A DNA stretch of 64,000 nucleotides. Origin: a virus. A model generated the notes under the pieces. It was not told the origin of the DNA, did not search any database, and saw only the letters and a list, made by a program, of their open reading frames with translations. The stretch spans positions 32,001 through 96,000 of the IMG/VR virus record IMGVR_UViG_3300020153_000001, one strand, 5' to 3'. Below are positions 33,889-57,855 of this stretch, piece by piece. The first letter of the stretch is position 1. Every line of letters starts with the position of its first letter. Both the position numbers and the translations under genes were made by a program.

Positions 33889-34968
33889 ATGGGGATCTAT
33901 CTCATCGGCTACCCCGGCGACGTTGGCGGAGCAAACGCAGAGTGCTGGCATACGGTTAAATTGTGGCGTAAATTTGGATTGGACGTAACCCTCATCCCCA
34001 CATGGGGGGGACCTCTTCCCGAATTCCGCAGCCGCTGCGACGAGATAGGATGCCGGACGCTCGTCATTAAGCAATCTGAGCTCTCTAATCTTGAGGAACT
34101 AAAAGGCGCCCCTGTAATCTCCTTCTGCAATAGCGAGTTTCTTAAAAACGCAGATACTATACGGCGCATGGGCTGCAAGATCATTTGGGTAGGGTGCATG
34201 TGCTGGCTGTTTAACGAAGAGAAACGGCACTACGCAAGAATGAACCGACCGTTTGACGCCTATATATTCCAGAGCCAGCATCAGTATAACACCTTACTAC
34301 CACAGCTCGAACGCTACGGCGTTAAAAAAGAAAGCTGCTTTCTTGTAAGGGCGGCATTTGCGCTCGATGAGTGGACCTTTAAACCACTCCCTCACAGGAA
34401 AGGCGAGCCATTCGTCGTGGGAAGGATAAGCCGACCTGCCCCAGACAAATTTCATACTTATACATGGAAGATATATGAGCGCATTATCCACCCTATTCAC
34501 GCAAGGATTATGGCGTGGAGCCCGGAAGTAGAAAAAAAGATAGGAAAGCCTCCACAATGGGCCACGGTACTAACCAGCCGGGCGGAGACAGCACAGGAAT
34601 TTTTCTCGCAATTGCATTGTATGATACAAGCAAGCGATCATGCTCAAGAGAACTGGCCCCGTTCCGGTCTTGAGGCTATGGCGGCAGGGGTGCCCATCGT
34701 TACGCACAACGCTTGGGGATGGAAGGAGATGATAATTCATGGCGTTACGGGATTTTTGGCGGACGATTTGGACGAAATGGCCTATTACGCTACTAAGCTA
34801 GCATACGAAGAGGAGCTTAGGCGGTTTATAGTAGAGTCTGCACGAAAAAAGCTTTATGAACTTACAGACGACAACACGATATGGCAAAGATGGAAAACCG
34901 CCTTTGAGTACGTCGATAAAACGTATGGGACGAAGATTTTGACTCCGGAGTCAAAATCTGCCATCTAG
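33889..34968 (+). CDS. Glycosyltransferase, GT-B/GT4-like
   Basis: VGGANAE at N-terminus; ENWPRSGLEAMAAGVPIV..GWKEMIIHGVTGFL. Confidence 0.85.
   Translation: MGIYLIGYPGDVGGANAECWHTVKLWRKFGLDVTLIPTWGGPLPEFRSRCDEIGCRTLVIKQSELSNLEELKGAPVISFCNSEFLKNADTIRRMGCKIIWVGCMCWLFNEEKRHYARMNRPFDAYIFQSQHQYNTLLPQLERYGVKKESCFLVRAAFALDEWTFKPLPHRKGEPFVVGRISRPAPDKFHTYTWKIYERIIHPIHARIMAWSPEVEKKIGKPPQWATVLTSRAETAQEFFSQLHCMIQASDHAQENWPRSGLEAMAAGVPIVTHNAWGWKEMIIHGVTGFLADDLDEMAYYATKLAYEEELRRFIVESARKKLYELTDDNTIWQRWKTAFEYVDKTYGTKILTPESKSAI
34937..34956. repeat. 20-bp palindrome, copy 8
   Basis: Exact, extends to 26 bp (34934-34959); codes LTPESK at the GT C-terminus. Confidence 0.98.
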
Positions 34969-35013
34969 TACGCTCTTTTTTAAAATCTAGCTAAAAAAAG
35001 AAAATATAGATTC

Positions 35014-35035
35014 GGGCTGTTGATCAGCCCTTTTT
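35014..35035 (+). terminator. Intrinsic terminator after the GT4 gene
   Basis: GGGCTG-TTGAT-CAGCCC followed by T5. Confidence 0.7.
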
Positions 35036-35058
35036 ATATCCCCTTAAACATAAGAGCT

Positions 35059-35247
35059 AAAAAAAGAGCACGCTCTGGCAGTGGGTTCGTCTAGGCGCCC
35101 CGGGCCGACGGGCGCCTCCCCCCGTATACTTCCGAAACGACTTCTTCGGATATTCCACCGCCAGCAGGCCCGGCTCTTTTTCCCCTCCCGCCTACTAGCC
35201 GCCGGGCTCGGCTGGCCCAACAGGGCCTTGGCGGGAAGAGCCCGTAC
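35059..35247 (-). ncRNA. Candidate structured RNA, copy A (family unknown)
   Basis: GC-rich multi-stem element ending in U7; homologous to 36115-36319 with compensatory stem changes. Confidence 0.65.
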
Positions 35248-35255
35248 ATTCATGT

Positions 35256-35286
35256 TTAATTGCCGTGTTATTGTCAAATCTTTAGC
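35256..35286 (-). promoter_or_regulatory. Repeated promoter-like motif GCTAAA-N16-GGCAATTAA
   Basis: Directly upstream of RNA copy A; same motif at four other sites. Confidence 0.6.
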
Positions 35287-35330
35287 TTATATTGCATGGG
35301 CTAAAAAAAGCAAACCCCGTCATGGAAGAA

Positions 35331-35350
35331 TTTTGACTCCGGAGTCAAAA
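35331..35350. repeat. 20-bp palindrome, copy 9
   Basis: Exact; between a terminator and the next promoter motif. Confidence 0.98.
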
Positions 35351-35375
35351 CTTGCCGTTTGAGTTTTTAATAGAT

Positions 35376-35429
35376 AAAAAAAGAGAGCGCAGCCAGCAGG
35401 GGAACTAGACAGCTCGCCCTGCTGGCTGC
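35376..35429 (-). terminator. Intrinsic terminator
   Basis: 13-bp stem GCAGCCAGCAGGG/CCCTGCTGGCTGC then GCTCTCTTTTTTT. Confidence 0.8.
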
Positions 35430-35436
35430 TTATTTT

Positions 35437-36066
35437 TTATTTATAAACGACAATGTCTATTTCGTATTTACCCCCGTGATACCCTGGGGAATACCGGACG
35501 CCGGCAACGTGGGCTCGGTCGCCCGGTTGTTCAACTACTGGCGAATGCCATCCATCCTTTCCGGGGGCGACCTTAACGGTCTCACCCCAGGATGTCTTTA
35601 ATACCTTCGGTAGCCGCCAGTAGCCCTCGGCCATCTGGCGGCATGTGGGGTGAGCAAGCACTAGTGTTAGTGTCTCGTGATGCCGCTCCCCCGCTCTGCT
35701 GAGGAAATCCTCGTTCTTGTCGAGCCTTTCCCCCGTCCTGGGGTACTCGGCTCGAATAATCTCTTTTGTCAGGTCGACGGGTAATTGAAGCTCCCCGGCC
35801 AACTCTTCCCACGTAAGGGCCTCCTGCCCAAACGTCCCGTGCATTGGGCTCAGTAATTCTATTGGACGGGTTCCGTCCTCGAGCCCGATCTCGTATTCCG
35901 TCCACGACCATTTCCCGCAGGGGTGGTGTTCTCTTTTCAAAACAACGCACCACCCCGGGATATCTTTACCTTCAAATTTTCGGGCCTCGCGGCCCTTGAT
36001 AAGGTATAGACGCGGATACCGCCCGCCATGTTCCCTGCCGTCAGTCCACTGGAAAACGCTAATCAT
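35437..36066 (-). CDS. Hypothetical accessory protein
   Basis: Start moved to ATG 36066 (GAGGAG SD); the ORF-track extension runs through the structured RNA. Confidence 0.65.
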   Translation of the reverse strand: MISVFQWTDGREHGGRYPRLYLIKGREARKFEGKDIPGWCVVLKREHHPCGKWSWTEYEIGLEDGTRPIELLSPMHGTFGQEALTWEELAGELQLPVDLTKEIIRAEYPRTGERLDKNEDFLSRAGERHHETLTLVLAHPTCRQMAEGYWRLPKVLKTSWGETVKVAPGKDGWHSPVVEQPGDRAHVAGVRYSPGYHGGKYEIDIVVYK

Positions 36067-36114
36067 GTTTTTATCTCCTCTTAAAAAAAAGGACTTGAAA
36101 CTTGCCGAAAATCT

Positions 36115-36319
36115 AAAAAAAGAGCTTTTTGAGGTGGTAGGTTCAACGGCGCCCCGGGCCACGGGCGCCTCCGCCGTATTTACCTTTTCCCCCGAAGGGG
36201 ATGCACTTCTCTCTCTTCGGATATTCTCCACCCCAACGGCCCGGCTCTTTTTTCCCCTCCCGCCTACTAGCCGCCGGGCTCGGCTGGTCCTTTGGACCTT
36301 GGCGGGAGGGAGCCCGTCC
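36115..36319 (-). ncRNA. Candidate structured RNA, copy B (leader of 35437..36066)
   Basis: Shares blocks such as CAGCCGAGCCCGGCGGCTAGTAGGCGGGAGGGGAAAAA with copy A. Confidence 0.65.
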
Positions 36320-36327
36320 ATTCATGT

Positions 36328-36358
36328 TTAATTGCCGTGTTATTGCCAAATCTTTAGC
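36328..36358 (-). promoter_or_regulatory. Promoter-like motif GCTAAA-N16-GGCAATTAA
   Basis: Near-identical to 35256-35286. Confidence 0.6.
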
Positions 36359-36696
36359 CAACAATTAGACCTACCCTTTCCTCCCCCCTTTTTTCTATAG
36401 GCTGGTAGAATAGATAGAAATAATGAGCGAGAGAGATAGAGAAAGAGAGGAGAGAGCTAGATAAAAAATTGGGAGGAAAAGAGTGGTAGTTGCCCTTATT
36501 ATGGTTTGGTTGGTTTCTCTTTTTTTAAGAACGGAACAAAGAGAAAGTTAGATTAACTCGTTATTTTCTTATATAAGAAAAAAAGAGAGAGAAGGAAAAA
36601 TAATAAAAGCAAAGAAAAAAATCTCTAAAAAATAGAGAGGCGGCAGGTAAAAAAAAGTAAAAAAAGTCTTTTTTTCCTTATCTATGGGAAGGAAAG

Positions 36697-36737
36697 TAGC
36701 TAAAGAGAGAGCGGCCCCCGCCTCGGGGGCGGGGGCC
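36697..36737 (-). terminator. Intrinsic terminator
   Basis: 10-bp stem GGCCCCCGCC/GGCGGGGGCC then GCTCTCTCTTTAGCTA, right after the stop of 36738..36932. Confidence 0.7.
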
Positions 36738-36932
36738 TCATTTTACTATAACCGGGTCCCCCTTCCGGGGGACCACGACGACTCCCCCGGACGAGGTGAC
36801 GACGACGATGTCATCACCCCGCCGGACGACGGCGACCGTCCCGGGGAGCGACTCAATCTGGGAAGGGGGCGCAGAACACCCCCCTCCCCCCATCGCGGCT
36901 AGGATGATTAAAGCAATGAACGCCCTTTTCAT
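36738..36932 (-). CDS. Small putative lipoprotein
   Basis: MKRAFIALIILAAMGGGGC signal-peptide-II-like N-terminus, 64 aa, AGGAGG SD; start moved to ATG 36932. Confidence 0.55.
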   Translation of the reverse strand: MKRAFIALIILAAMGGGGCSAPPSQIESLPGTVAVVRRGDDIVVVTSSGGVVVVPRKGDPVIVK

Positions 36933-37129
36933 CTTTTTATTCCTCCTTTTATAAAAGGAACTTTTTCCGACCCACATATAAATGCCAATTTTTAATGCAT
37001 TATTCGGGAATCTTTCCTCCTTCCCTAATACGCGCCTTGTAGCAAGGAGCTTTTCCCTAGCCGCTACGTCATTCTTATAAATAAGGAAGAATATAAAAAG
37101 CGGCAAGTTTTGGGGATAAGAAGACCTTT

Positions 37130-37149
37130 TTTTGACTCCGGAGTCAAAA
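37130..37149. repeat. 20-bp palindrome, copy 10
   Basis: Exact, T7/A7 flanks (37127-37152). Confidence 0.98.
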
Positions 37150-37325
37150 AAATAAAGAGGAGGGGTGAAAAGGAGTTATGAATACAATAAACATCCTCTA
37201 TAATTGAGGGAAGAAGTTTTAAAAATAAAAAAATAGAAGTGGAGCTTATAAACCGTTTTGTAGGCGTTTAATCTTAAAAAAGAGCCATCTCCATAAGATG
37301 AATGACGCGGCAAGGCGCCGATTAA

Positions 37326-37393
37326 GCCGGTCTCCGACGGCGGAAACGGCGGCTTGTACCCGCCGAAGCGGGGTTCGACTCCCCGGACCGGCT
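37326..37393 (+). tRNA. tRNA-Thr(UGU)-like, compact non-canonical cloverleaf, 68 nt
   Basis: Acceptor GCCGGTC/GACCGGC, anticodon stem CGGCGG/CCGCCG with loop CTTGTAC, T-arm CGGGG-TTCGACT-CCCCG, minimal D-arm; no CCA. Confidence 0.7.
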
Positions 37394-37395
37394 GT

Positions 37396-37463
37396 GCCTG
37401 CCTGATGCGGCATCGACGCTGATTCGTACTCAGCGGAAGGGGGTTCGACTCCCCCGGCAGGCT
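37396..37463 (+). tRNA. tRNA-Thr(CGU)-like, compact non-canonical cloverleaf, 68 nt
   Basis: Acceptor GCCTGCC/GGCAGGC, D-arm GATG-CGG-CATC, anticodon stem CGCTGA/TCAGCG with loop TTCGTAC, T-arm GGGGG-TTCGACT-CCCCC; no CCA. Confidence 0.7.
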
Positions 37464-37513
37464 ATTAACTAATAGACCTATCTTTTATCATTATTAATAA
37501 AAATAAATAAATG

Positions 37514-37604
37514 AAAATTCCGCAGAATTCCCGTTTTTCACTGCCGAATTTCTGCAAAATTTCCGCAAAATTCCTGCTGAATTCTGCGGAATTCCTGCAA
37601 AATC
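37514..37604. repeat. Imperfect 10-11-bp tandem repeats with a 15-bp inverted repeat
   Basis: gaatttctgca/aaatttccgca/aaattcctgct/gaattctgcg/gaattcctgca (37546-37599); AATTCCGCAGAATTC (37516-37530) is the reverse complement of 37579-37593. Confidence 0.8.
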
Positions 37605-37828
37605 AACGTATTAATTTGGCCGTAATCGCTATGAATCCAATCATCCTGCAATTCGTGCGCCAGCCAACTAAAGCGATTAGCCGATAAGCACGACAAATTT
37701 AACTAATTACCTTCCACATACACAATACTAGCTAAAAAATAAAAATTCTAGACTGAGGGTAGAAGCTTTGAACGGCCCCCTCAGCCAACCCAAGCTCCTT
37801 TCGGGGGAAGTGGGAGGAAGATGGATAA

Positions 37829-37916
37829 TTGGCCGCCTGCTTCATTGCCAGGGCGGGGCCCTTTCTGCGGTCGAACCGCACCGGAACCTCGCCCCGGCCG
37901 GCCGTCTGGCGGCCAA
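37829..37916 (-). ncRNA. Candidate structured RNA (family unknown)
   Basis: Closing stem TTGGCCGCC/GGCGGCCAA, internal GGGGC/GCCCC stem and TGCGG-TTCGA-CCGCA hairpin; follows the promoter motif. Confidence 0.45.
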
Positions 37917-37947
37917 CGAATATAAATAATACCCTTTGGGGTCACAC

Positions 37948-37978
37948 TTAAATGCCATTGTTTTGCCAATTGTTTAAC
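37948..37978 (-). promoter_or_regulatory. Promoter-like motif variant GTTAAA-N16-GGCATTTAA
   Basis: Same spacing; 6 nt downstream of palindrome copy 11. Confidence 0.55.
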
Positions 37979-37984
37979 GAAATT

Positions 37985-38004
37985 TTTTGACTCCGGAGTC
38001 AAAA
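37985..38004. repeat. 20-bp palindrome, copy 11
   Basis: Exact; intergenic. Confidence 0.98.
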
Positions 38005-38041
38005 GATTTGATCTTCTGAACGTGCTCCTCCAAAGATAAAT

Positions 38042-38087
38042 AAAAAAGGGGGCTGGTCGAGCATAGTTTCCCTGGCTCGACCAGCCC
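38042..38087 (-). terminator. Intrinsic terminator
   Basis: 13-bp stem GGGCTGGTCGAGC/GCTCGACCAGCCC with U-tract. Confidence 0.75.
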
Positions 38088-38324
38088 TTTTAACGGCCGG
38101 TTCACCACGTCTTGATCCCGATGAACCGGCCAACCAAATATAGCGCGGCCAAGGCCGCGATGAATGCCCTGGCCGCGCTACCGGCGTCCATATTGGCGGC
38201 GGCAACCGCCACCGCCAATACGAACGCGACAACGGCCGCCAACATTTCCCATCTCCTCAAAAAAGCAAGGAAAAAAACTAAAAACCCAGGGGAATCGGAC
38301 CGCCCGATTCAAGCTTAAATGCCG

Positions 38325-38552
38325 CTACTTTGACAAAAAATATACCGCTATAAATACAATAAGCGGCGTCAGTGCCGTCATGCCTAGCTTAAACCCAAAG
38401 TCGCCGCCTATAAGCACAGCCGCCGCAATAGCGAGCGAAGCTGCAGCTATACCGATAGGTAGGCCGAACTTCGCATTCTGGGCGTATTCATTAACTATCA
38501 GCGGTAGAAAGAACAATCCAGTCGCAACGGCGGCCAAAATTAACCCGTCCAT
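38325..38552 (-). CDS. Small membrane protein
   Basis: 75 aa, mostly hydrophobic, AAGGA SD. Confidence 0.55.
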   Translation of the reverse strand: MDGLILAAVATGLFFLPLIVNEYAQNAKFGLPIGIAAASLAIAAAVLIGGDFGFKLGMTALTPLIVFIAVYFLSK

Positions 38553-38630
38553 TGTCGTGTCCTTTCGCTTCCATTAAGCCGTTAAAAATATCGACAGAGG
38601 GCACCAGCCTCTAATAGTACGACGCCTGAT

Positions 38631-39029
38631 TTAGTTCTCGATAACAGGAAGCATGTCTATAGCAATAACGGCCCGTAACAGATTAGCAAGGTCGCGGTCA
38701 AAGTCCACATCATTAGTAGTTACGTATAGCTTGTTATTTCGACACCCTACCCTTGTCTCATATAATATGCTTTCGATCTTTTTCGTGTTTTGTTCGTACT
38801 TATCATCTTCTCTTAGATCTCTAATCGTACTTCCGTTGTCATCTATGGTAAAACCATCCCCTTGCTCTCTTACATAAAGCTCGATATGATAACCTTTGCG
38901 TGATTTAATAGGGCAGAATACGATAACGTGATCGTCAAATAATGTATAATCGAATCCCAACGTCATCTGGCACAAATACTTGCGCAATAGCGTCTCAAGA
39001 TTCAGTTTAGCCTTCGTTTCGTGTTTCAT
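38631..39029 (-). CDS. DUF1828-like protein
   Basis: IELYVREQGDGFTIDDNGSTIRDL resembles the DUF1828 core (recalled, not searched). Confidence 0.5.
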   Translation of the reverse strand: MKHETKAKLNLETLLRKYLCQMTLGFDYTLFDDHVIVFCPIKSRKGYHIELYVREQGDGFTIDDNGSTIRDLREDDKYEQNTKKIESILYETRVGCRNNKLYVTTNDVDFDRDLANLLRAVIAIDMLPVIEN

Positions 39030-39062
39030 CGAAGCCCTTTCTTAAAAGAGACCAAAAACCAT

Positions 39063-39082
39063 TTTTGACTCCGGAGTCAAAA
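39063..39082. repeat. 20-bp palindrome, copy 12
   Basis: Exact; at a divergent strand switch. Confidence 0.98.
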
Positions 39083-39164
39083 TGCCGGGGCGATTCATAA
39101 GAGCATAGAAATATGATAGATTGGAGATTGGGCAAACCGTATTTCCGTAACGGAGGAAGAACGC

Positions 39165-39554
39165 GTGGAGAAGCGATTTCTGCCTGTAAAGAAGAAAACG
39201 GTCATCGAAATTTGCCTGCTTTTGGGGTTTGATGAGAATTTTGAAAATCTCAGCCAGAAAGAGAAGGATATCGTTACAGCTGTTGTTTTTGTCGCTTACA
39301 AATACGACGCTGAGATTGTGAGAATTATATTTAGAAAGTATAAAGATCAGCTTCTCGATAATATAGAGACAGCGGATATCAAGCTAGGCATAGCAGATAA
39401 TACGTGGGCTACCATCTTTATCAACGGCATACCTCAAAAATGGTATGATATTAAAAACGCGAAGTTTATAGACGATACCCCTATCGTGCTAGACGCCCGA
39501 GTGTTCGATATAAAAGGGATTACTAAGCTCATTGAGCTTCGGCTTACCGACTAA
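39165..39554 (+). CDS. Hypothetical protein
   Basis: GTG start with GGAGG SD; bracketed by palindrome copies 12 and 13. Confidence 0.6.
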   Translation: MEKRFLPVKKKTVIEICLLLGFDENFENLSQKEKDIVTAVVFVAYKYDAEIVRIIFRKYKDQLLDNIETADIKLGIADNTWATIFINGIPQKWYDIKNAKFIDDTPIVLDARVFDIKGITKLIELRLTD

Positions 39555-41287: not shown

Positions 41288-41479
41288 TCACTCGGTTGAC
41301 GCTTGCTTTTTCATCTTTTCTTCTAGCTCGCCCCGCCATATTTTTACTTCGGGAGGGGCGTCTATGGCCAATCTAACCTTCCCTGCCCGCTTGTCGATAT
41401 CCGTTACGACTATCCTTATCGAAATGTTACCGTGGTTGATGACAAGGGTTTCGTTCTTTCTTCGCGCAAGTACTAGCAT
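41288..41479 (-). CDS. csrA: CsrA/RsmA-family translational regulator
   Basis: MLVLARRKNETLVI...KVRLAIDAPPEVKIWRGEL matches the family signature; AAGGAG SD. Confidence 0.9.
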   Translation of the reverse strand: MLVLARRKNETLVINHGNISIRIVVTDIDKRAGKVRLAIDAPPEVKIWRGELEEKMKKQASTE

Positions 41480-41530
41480 TTCGACTCCTTTCTAAAAAGG
41501 GAAAGAAAAATATGGCCTGATACAAAAAAG

Positions 41531-41890
41531 TGGAGGCGGCGGGAATCGAACCCGCGTCCCGCGGCGGCCTTCGGATAGGCCTGGTACGTGCGTAGTCGGT
41601 TTTTGAATTTCGCCAGCCGGGGCCCAACCGACAGGGCCATCTCGACGGCTAGCCGGCCTTGAAGTTTAATCTTGGGCCAAACCGGCGCCGACCCAAGACG
41701 AGCCGGAATTGCCGACCGGTTTTCGGGCCTCTCCGGCAAAAGCCCTCAACCGGGCTGCCTATCGACTAAGCAGCAATCGCGAGCGGCTGCTCGGCGTGTA
41801 ATTTTGCAGTCGGCTTTTAACGTGGCCAGCCGACCAACCACGGCACGGTGCCTATCGCCAGAGCCGTCCGGTCGAATCCAATTCGCCCCC
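41531..41890 (-). ncRNA. ssrA: tmRNA
   Basis: 5' GGGGGCG pairs with 3' CGCCTCC-A (G3:U70 Ala identity); GGATTCGAC and GGTTCGATTCC motifs; tag ORF 41807-41766 = AKLHAEQPLAIAA-stop. Confidence 0.95.
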
Positions 41891-57763: not shown

Positions 57764-57824
57764 TTCACTTCTCCTTTAAAAAAAGCCCAACTCCGGCGCC
57801 GCCACGGCGGCAGCGCCACCAAAC

Positions 57825-57855
57825 TTAATTGCCTAGAAAATGGCCAAAATTTAGC
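57825..57855 (-). promoter_or_regulatory. Promoter-like motif GCTAAA-N16-GGCAATTAA
   Basis: Upstream of the csx15 leader hairpin. Confidence 0.6.

Follow-up and report, generated by a model that had tools for sequence, protein, structure and literature searches.

A 64-kb stretch of phage DNA (the window), which spans positions 32001-96000 of an IMG/VR phage record of 135.5 kb (94% complete) from a hot-springs metagenome, carries two related copies of a structured element on its minus strand, which we refer to as copy A (35059-35247) and copy B (36115-36319). Somewhat better than even chances can be given to the explanation that both are genes, paralogous to each other, of a structured small RNA that is new and restricted to its lineage, and that copy B serves at the same time as the leader of an open reading frame (ORF) of 209 aa. 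The original prediction, which was made from the sequence alone, had proposed a structured non-coding RNA with a free-standing copy A and a gene-leading copy B, and this part of it stood, as did the positions it gave for the two copies, whereas its further proposals of a riboswitch, a ribozyme or a CsrA decoy gained no support. A BLAST search with copy A against the whole record recovered exactly two sites, at 100% and 78% identity.

Both copies adopt the same two-domain structure, in which each domain is organized around a three-way junction, and all the helices that had been named in the earlier prediction (P1, P2, P3, the domain-2 closing stem P4, and the hairpins P5 and P6) are found in each of them (Table 1). 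Domain 1 comprises P1 (10-11 bp), the P2 hairpin, the P3 hairpin (5 bp, with the loop AGCCCGG) and the junction segment AGUA. The closing helix of domain 2, P0, is formed between A5GAGC and the GCUCU5 of the 3' tail, and it encloses the three-way junction of P4, P5 and P6. A block of 49 nt, spanning P3, AGUA, the 3' strand of P1, the A tract and GAGCCGGGCC, is invariant in an RNA that has otherwise diverged by 22%, and the variable elements are the P2 loop, the sequence of P4, the P5 loop (6 versus 17 nt) and J5/6. The motif GCCCG(G) is displayed in both the P3 loop and the P6 loop, and the single-stranded linker CCGGGCC, which is invariant in both copies, is complementary to both of these loops (6 bp at -11.6 and 7 bp at -14.9 kcal/mol). 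The minimum free energy (MFE) z-scores of the copies are modest (-2.6 and -2.2), and the helices persist in silico at 65-75 C. The unit is strand-specific: the folding energy is lower on the minus than on the plus strand (-95.0 versus -80.5 and -91.4 versus -88.1 kcal/mol), and the fold is specific to the minus strand because of G-U pairs that form on that strand only.

The structure of this RNA is under selection. We aligned the copies by fitting copy B to a single-sequence covariance model of copy A, a procedure that leans toward the model, and found that 54 out of 54 modelled pairs form in both copies, with 100% of the 107 pair cells occupied by standard pairs. Between the copies there are 14 substitutions at paired positions, all of which keep the pairing, and five pairs are changed on both sides. 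Control alignments in which the 3' partner was slid by 1-3 columns contained 0-1 double changes, with 47-59% of positions paired, and the compensatory base changes that had been proposed to distinguish the copies are thus borne out. When considered by helix, P2 contributes one double change and P4 two to four, and four further changes are of the G-C/G-U type. Even if P4 is read without gaps from the junction side, two double changes are retained, and copy B forms a perfect 9-bp helix of different sequence.

Variation within the population points in the same direction for P3. A minor metagenome unitig of 77 nt, with a depth of 6.8 as against about 10-14, carries two linked changes and no others (36285 T>C and 36269 A>G). 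These correspond to A35>G and U51>C on the RNA and replace the A-U pair that closes P3 in copy B by G-C. The existence of this natural G35-C51 variant supports a 5-bp P3 with a 7-nt loop over the 4-bp alternative that is predicted at high temperature. The unitig occurs in both source DNA data sets, but as these may be the same data, we counted the variant as one observation.

The RNA is also non-coding, although gene callers treat part of it otherwise. An ATG within the promoter-like motif that precedes each copy (see below) opens a frame of 52 aa in copy A and of 294 aa in copy B, and because the frame from the copy B ATG runs into the next gene, public gene calls list a 294-aa protein (P0001, 35437-36321, minus strand) that fuses copy B to the 209-aa ORF. 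The gene calls and this ATG speak for another reading of the locus, as a protein-coding or DNA-level repeat and not an RNA gene: a small ORF, additional N-terminal sequence of the 209-aa protein, an origin or a recombination site. This we regard as extremely improbable, given that the substitutions preserve base pairs and not codons and that the G-U pairs make the structure strand-specific. Indels of a single base distinguish the copies in P1, in the loops of P2 and P6, in the A tract and in P4, and there are additional insertions of 11 nt and 7 nt. As several of these lengths are not divisible by three, the frame is shifted at least three times between the copies and is not conserved. Furthermore, no Shine-Dalgarno (SD) sequence is found before the motif-internal ATG, and a protein search with the 85-aa extension translated from copy B, which was meant to catch mis-annotated homologues, detected no relative. 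As regards the annotation itself, the first 85 residues of P0001 result from translating RNA copy B together with its terminator, and the real start of the ORF is most likely at 36066, behind a strong SD.

Table 1. Positions in the window (except for the motif sites elsewhere in the record) of the two RNA copies, their structural elements and associated features.
Feature	Position	Strand	Details
RNA copy A	35059..35247	-	189 nt, stand-alone; covariance model 244 bits
Copy A domain 1	35182..35240	-	P1 35230-35240/35182-35192; P2 35214-35227; P3 35197-35213, loop AGCCCGG; junction AGUA
Copy A domain 2	35061..35181	-	P0 (A5GAGC/GCUCU5) 35173-35181/35061-35069; linker CCGGGCC 35167-35173; P4 35155-35164/35075-35084; P5 35131-35150; P6 35094-35116, loop GUCGGCCCG
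RNA copy B	36115..36319	-	205 nt, 48 nt upstream of the 209-aa ORF; copy-A model 117 bits
Copy B domain 1	36254..36312	-	P1 36301-36312/36254-36264; P2 36286-36298 (C-G to U-A relative to copy A); P3 36269-36285
Copy B domain 2	36117..36252	-	P0 36244-36252/36117-36125; P4 36226-36236/36129-36140 (9-11 bp); P5 36191-36221, 17-nt loop; P6 36148-36169
Promoter-like 34-mer of copy A	35247..35280	-	core GGCAATTAAACATG at 35251-35264
Promoter-like 34-mer of copy B	36319..36352	-	core at 36323-36336
Motif GGCAWTTAWRNNTG, sites in the window	35251-35264, 36323-36336, 36973-36986, 37943-37956, 38310-38323, 57820-57833	-	
Motif GGCAWTTAWRNNTG, sites elsewhere in the record	G000:C1:19438-19451, 128695-128708	-	
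209-aa ORF behind copy B	35437..36066	-	without own promoter motif, family or clear fold
Palindrome TTTTGACTCCGGAGTCAAAA	35331..35350		upstream of copy A promoter
Palindrome TTTTGACTCCGGAGTCAAAA	34937-34956		downstream of copy A

The RNA matches no known family. A search of the window with the 4227 covariance models of Rfam 15 at gathering thresholds yielded only a tmRNA and two tRNAs, and permissive searches (E<=10) with the 1.6-kb region and with each bare copy gave best E-values of 0.5-5, all to unrelated miRNA, small RNA and viral models. Riboswitches, ribozymes, 5S, SRP, 6S, RNase P, Y RNA, pRNA and HEARO are absent from the E<=10 lists. These searches uphold the earlier statement that the family is not a recognized one, but they offer nothing to the functional suggestions made along with it. 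No ligand-aptamer family was matched at E<=10, and the comparison of the two copies brought up no conserved anti-terminator pairing, so that a riboswitch-like leader gains no support; the ribozyme suggestion is likewise unsupported, as none of the hammerhead, twister, twister-sister, pistol, hatchet, HDV-like, hairpin, VS and glmS models was matched at the same threshold. The hint of a CsrA decoy fares no better, as GGA occurs 5 and 7 times in the copies against 4.6 and 6.0 expected from shuffles, and 0 of these occurrences lie in hairpin loops.

Three specific identities were considered and gained no support. In the case of 5S rRNA, which forms a three-way junction of 115-120 nt with loop C and loop E motifs, RF00001 is missing from all the E<=10 lists and domain 2 measures 90-105 nt. 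In the case of a tRNA or tRNA-like element, ARAGORN and RF00005 place tRNAs elsewhere in the window and none at the copies. Type III toxin-antitoxin (ToxIN-like) systems have tandem repeats of about 36 nt upstream of an endoribonuclease of the ToxN/AbiQ family; the present RNA contains no short tandem repeats, and the 209-aa ORF belongs to no Pfam or PHROG family. One may still entertain that the RNA belongs, in strongly diverged or chimeric form, to a known class, such as a CRISPR-repeat mimic centred on P6, a sponge for the CsrA that the phage encodes, or a 5S-rRNA-like or tRNA-like decoy. P6 with (G)UUGAAC or ACGAAC bears what we take to be a loose likeness to type I-C repeats, and the letters CUGGCGG...CUGCCAG and CCGAAG..GAAGUG of P4 and P5 are, presumably, reminiscent of 5S rRNA; the CRISPR direct-repeat (CRISPR-DR) models did not match P6 at E<=10, nor did RF00001 match the RNA. 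The only other indication is a chance-level match of P5 in copy B to Rfam CRISPR-DR57 (13.9 bits, E=2.1), and this lies in a region missing from copy A. Given that no CRISPR-DR, 5S, tRNA, tmRNA, Y RNA, 6S, SRP or RNase P model matches P6 or either domain at E<=10, that ARAGORN calls no tRNA-like gene here, and that GGA is neither enriched nor present in hairpin loops, we consider such an origin very unlikely.

As far as present data go, the RNA is confined to a single phage in the collections that we searched. A blastn search of the locus against 50,697 phage records recovered no homologue, exact and gapped motif scans of IMG/VR returned chance or coding matches only, and an IMG/VR scan with the promoter plus motif recovered only the known relative described below. 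Four of the IMG/VR motif matches were rejected as Pro-rich coding DNA of unrelated high-GC phages. The 26 matches of a metagenome scan and the 27 of a genome scan were all judged by inspection to be coding or chance, and none of them scores with the covariance models, which find only copies A and B. Five related phage records were retrieved via the RNA polymerase, and BLAST and the covariance models R1 and R2 show the RNA to be absent from 5/5 of them. The closest relative, G001, is a complete record with 83% polymerase identity; it is syntenic on both flanks of the RNA locus, where the genes share 64-74% DNA identity, and a search of its syntenic 16 kb with R1 and filters off returned only weak matches of <=23 bits inside a GC-rich ORF. 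In G001 the segment corresponding to window 34900-39400 is 8.5 kb of unrelated DNA (L011:6584-15158), and the stretch is a hypervariable island. In both the phage and this relative, the island appears to specialize in small structured RNAs.

The same 34-mer, GATTTGRCAATAACACGGCAATTAAACATGAATG, stands directly upstream of each copy, in keeping with the common promoter motif that had been proposed, and these are its only 2 occurrences in the window, where shuffles lead us to expect 0. Its core, GGCAWTTAWRNNTG, is found at eight sites in the phage, 8/8 on the minus (coding) strand, and at five sites in G001, 5/5 on the plus (coding) strand, with 0 sites for the reversed control. The majority of sites fall inside the variable island. 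The usual order of elements within a few bases after the motif is a GC-rich hairpin, a U-run, an SD and an ORF; three of the sites instead precede long GC-rich RNAs, namely copy A, copy B and a third orphan RNA at about 37.75-37.95 kb. The RNA polymerase of this phage is of the beta/beta' type and is divided between ORFs of 1452 and 617 aa. Given that the phage encodes its own polymerase, we treat the motif as a putative phage-specific promoter, and it is a candidate promoter class of the accessory island, with promoter-proximal attenuation being conceivable.

At the other end, both copies finish in GCTCTTTTTTTAG, the sequence closing each of them being GCUCUUUUUUUAG, and the U7 ending noted earlier is present in both. 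The U tract of a canonical intrinsic terminator abuts the stem. The ordinary gene ends of this phage consist of a strong stem, a 6-9-nt spacer finishing in CUC, U6-7 and AG, and P4 with its spacer and U7 matches this form in both copies. The stem-spacer-CUC-U-AG arrangement may be a signal adapted to the phage polymerase; we encountered the gene-end form at window positions 35385, 58787 and 37284 besides the two RNA 3' ends. The resemblance of P4, spacer and U7 to ordinary phage terminators, the composition of the island out of small units of motif, hairpin, U-run and 20-bp palindrome, and the presence of unrelated GC-rich structured elements at the equivalent place in the relative would all be in keeping with structural punctuation that has no specific partner, that is, oversized terminator or 5'-stabilizer modules that insulate moron cassettes and were duplicated along with a cassette boundary. 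However, such punctuation leaves unexplained the 49-nt invariant core next to a remainder that is 22% diverged, the compensatory upkeep of four or five helices together with the P3 population variant, and the two same-sequence loops beside a complementary linker, and we consider it improbable.

The two copies differ in what lies behind them, as had been predicted. Copy A is followed by no downstream ORF, and only a bidirectional terminator-like hairpin separates it from the next gene, a convergent glycosyltransferase gene that ends about 90 nt away. Copy B leads the 209-aa ORF, which is equipped with a strong SD and lies 48 nt downstream, with no further promoter motif in between. Since expression of the 209-aa gene requires reading through copy B, this copy is physically also a leader. 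The 209-aa ORF itself has nothing comparable in Pfam, PHROGs or the ESM Atlas. Its AlphaFold model (pLDDT 83.6) has no Foldseek match in PDB at E<=0.001, and the best VIA-align score, Z=4.4 to Rieske-type beta domains, is not convincing, a negative outcome that leaves room for a ToxN-like fold. Two homologues with 42-43% identity, P0002 and P0003, are encoded on other phage contigs, where some 80 nt separate their genes from the gene before and nothing matches the RNA model. That these homologues do without the leader weakens the reading of the RNA as a dedicated cis-regulator. Over the N-terminus of the ORF, a minor metagenome contig (window 35950-36116) differs at 12/84 positions; the 5 differences that are individually listed fall mostly at third codon positions, and beyond 36033 the contig continues directly at 36116. 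A second strain, in which RNA copy B and the ORF are joined differently, is thereby indicated.

The layout of copy B, with the promoter motif, a 205-nt RNA, U7, 48 nt, an SD and an ATG in succession, is a classic one for a cis-acting conditional terminator, be it a riboswitch-like, a protein-dependent or an antitermination leader. Domain 1 would then sense a ligand or protein and decide on termination at P0/P4 and U7 before the 209-aa ORF, and copy A would be an orphaned duplicate or a decoy that titrates the effector. The recurrent motif-hairpin-U-run-SD-ORF order in the phage and its relative suggests attenuation as a general theme, and the invariant core of junction and loops is aptamer-like, with a linker that can pair with either loop. 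Nevertheless, we judge a conditional terminator to be rather unlikely. No riboswitch or leader family is detected at E<=10, copy A has nothing to regulate, the homologues of the 209-aa gene are found elsewhere behind another gene and without the RNA, and domain 2, as a conserved three-way junction of 90-105 nt, exceeds what an expression platform needs. Moreover, the sole alternative pairing that we found, which joins the 5' half of domain 1 with the linker and the 5' strand of P4, is by inspection broken in copy B. P0 and an alternative 5' GGCUC/GAGCC pairing are both invariant, a comparison that involves two sequences only.

Under the explanation that we favour, with two paralogous small-RNA genes, each gene would be a self-contained unit in the variable accessory island, starting at a GGCAWTTAWRNNTG-class motif and ending at the usual terminator-like module of the phage, with its stem, spacer ending in CUC, U7 and AG. 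Transcription of the units, with a 3' end at U7, is predicted from these sequence signals. The 3' U tail would be tucked into P0 by way of the internal A5GAGC tract, and the RNA would probably act as a folded particle, serving through its invariant core as a scaffold for a protein or RNA partner. The linker CCGGGCC might form one of two mutually exclusive pseudoknots, with either the P3 or the P6 loop. Copy A would act only in trans, and read-through of copy B would generate the 5' leader of the 209-aa ORF, with the copy B terminator also setting the expression of that gene. A further possibility, which we put forward tentatively and regard as improbable, is that of a thermostable riboregulator, in which the two loops compete for the linker and the RNA toggles accordingly, pairing with the P3 loop giving a domain-bridging pseudoknot and pairing with the P6 loop an intra-domain one. 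The toggle would set termination at U7, and hence downstream expression, as well as the conformation of the released small RNA, with copy A being trans-acting or a decoy; it may be set by a ligand, by a phage or host protein, or by temperature. Such a double-loop/linker switch would, if true, be a new regulatory architecture.

Several points weigh against the two-gene explanation. The start, the end and the expression of both units are all deduced from the DNA, and in simple consensus scans the unit ends are recognized neither as a sigma-70 promoter nor as a canonical hairpin-U terminator. Because what follows the motif is usually a short hairpin and then a U-run, an SD and an ORF, the long RNAs could be elaborated leaders and not free RNAs. 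The RNA is dispensable for the lineage, as the closest relative lacks it altogether, and a search of the phage genome for antisense targets gave complementarity no better than chance. Finally, P0, P6 and the proposed pseudoknots escape the covariation test because they are invariant, and the comparison comprises only two paralogues and one variant haplotype.

Comparison with known systems places the RNA near several groups without assigning it to any. GOLLD, ROOL and the smaller Breaker/Weinberg candidate motifs are orphan RNAs of phages and mobile elements that emerged from comparative genomics, and all of them are in Rfam. The present RNA is like this group in being phage-borne and intergenic, in lying near tRNA and tmRNA genes in an accessory region, and in its GC-rich, multi-junction fold with invariant loops. 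However, it has no sequence or structure match to them, is much smaller than GOLLD or ROOL, and is represented by two paralogues in one genome. The 6S RNA of phage lambda is the short PR'-tR' transcript, a promoter-proximal terminated leader of a phage operon. It is similar in being a product of about 200 nt from a phage promoter with a terminator just before genes, and the short RNA and the read-through transcript would share a start, as is proposed here for copy B. It differs in that it is not known to have an elaborate conserved fold such as that seen here, and copy A is without an operon behind it. No Q-like antiterminator or qut-like site was seen at the present locus, although no search was aimed at them. 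Stand-alone riboswitches that release small RNAs are also on record, for example Listeria SreA/SreB. Terminator-platform riboswitches share with our RNA the three-way junction with an invariant core, the U-tract, the SD and the ORF, and here too one copy is geneless. Unlike them, the RNA matches no aptamer family and shows no conserved anti-terminator between its two copies, its 'platform' is itself a conserved three-way junction, and the downstream gene family occurs elsewhere without such a leader.

Structured phage RNAs such as pRNA, GOLLD/ROOL and RNA anti-CRISPRs have been rare entry points to new biology. The RNA described here belongs to a thermophilic phage lineage that has been poorly sampled and that encodes a multisubunit RNA polymerase, a tmRNA and CsrA of its own, and it is located in an island of fast turnover. 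With a two-domain fold of about 190 nt that is rich in GC and predicted to withstand heat, it would lend itself to structure determination. Its weight is limited because, well supported though it is, it is a functionally blank orphan that is known from a single genome. RNA anti-CRISPRs (Racrs) are solitary CRISPR-repeat mimics in phage genomes (PMC10651486). The likeness to them lies in a small phage non-coding RNA with a GC-rich hairpin and its own promoter, which here is a promoter-like motif. Racrs are single repeat-sized units matching the host repeat (PMC10651486). The present RNA, by contrast, is about 200 nt long, has two domains, and carries a P6 without a CRISPR-DR match.

Other structured elements were observed in the island and its counterpart. 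The third orphan GC-rich RNA of the window (37745-37945, minus strand; MFE z=-2.5) lies behind the same promoter-like motif as copies A and B and contains a T-loop-like hairpin, UGCGG-UUCGA-CCGCA, with no Rfam match at gathering thresholds. In G001, an orphan structured RNA (L011:7490-7680, plus strand) folds into a four-way junction followed by a strong terminator (z=-4.67) and is located behind a TATAAT-type promoter. A leader in the same relative (L011:6975-7060, plus strand), situated before an 83-aa ORF, has crossing complementarities of the form UUACCACC..CCCCGCC..GGUGGUAA..GGCGGGG, which are pseudoknot-like.

The window carries a tmRNA and tRNAs, as detected with Rfam and ARAGORN. The tmRNA scores 146 bits with Rfam 15 and has the tag AEQPLAIAA according to ARAGORN, and no tmRNA match was found within the first 16 kb of G001. 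The CsrA homologue of the phage (PF02599, E=7e-16) is encoded directly downstream of the full-length tmRNA (41288-41479 and 41528-41890, both on the minus strand). On the minority strand, ARAGORN calls an adjacent pair of tRNA-Thr genes (UGU and CGU; window 37325-37464, plus strand), on which the Rfam tRNA model is silent at gathering score, suggesting that these are unusual tRNAs.

The 20-bp perfect palindrome TTTTGACTCCGGAGTCAAAA, a genome-wide element, occurs at 18 sites in the window. It abuts the promoter-like motif at two sites, and a degenerate half copy of it is located right after copy B. A 368-nt 'deletion' joint seen in metagenome contigs (34957->35326) was rejected as a repeat artefact, one of its sides being only 20 nt long and lying inside the repeated palindrome. 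At the equivalent place G001 has TTTGATTCCGGAATCAAA (L011:6917-6934), from which it follows that both half-sites of the palindrome have changed together.

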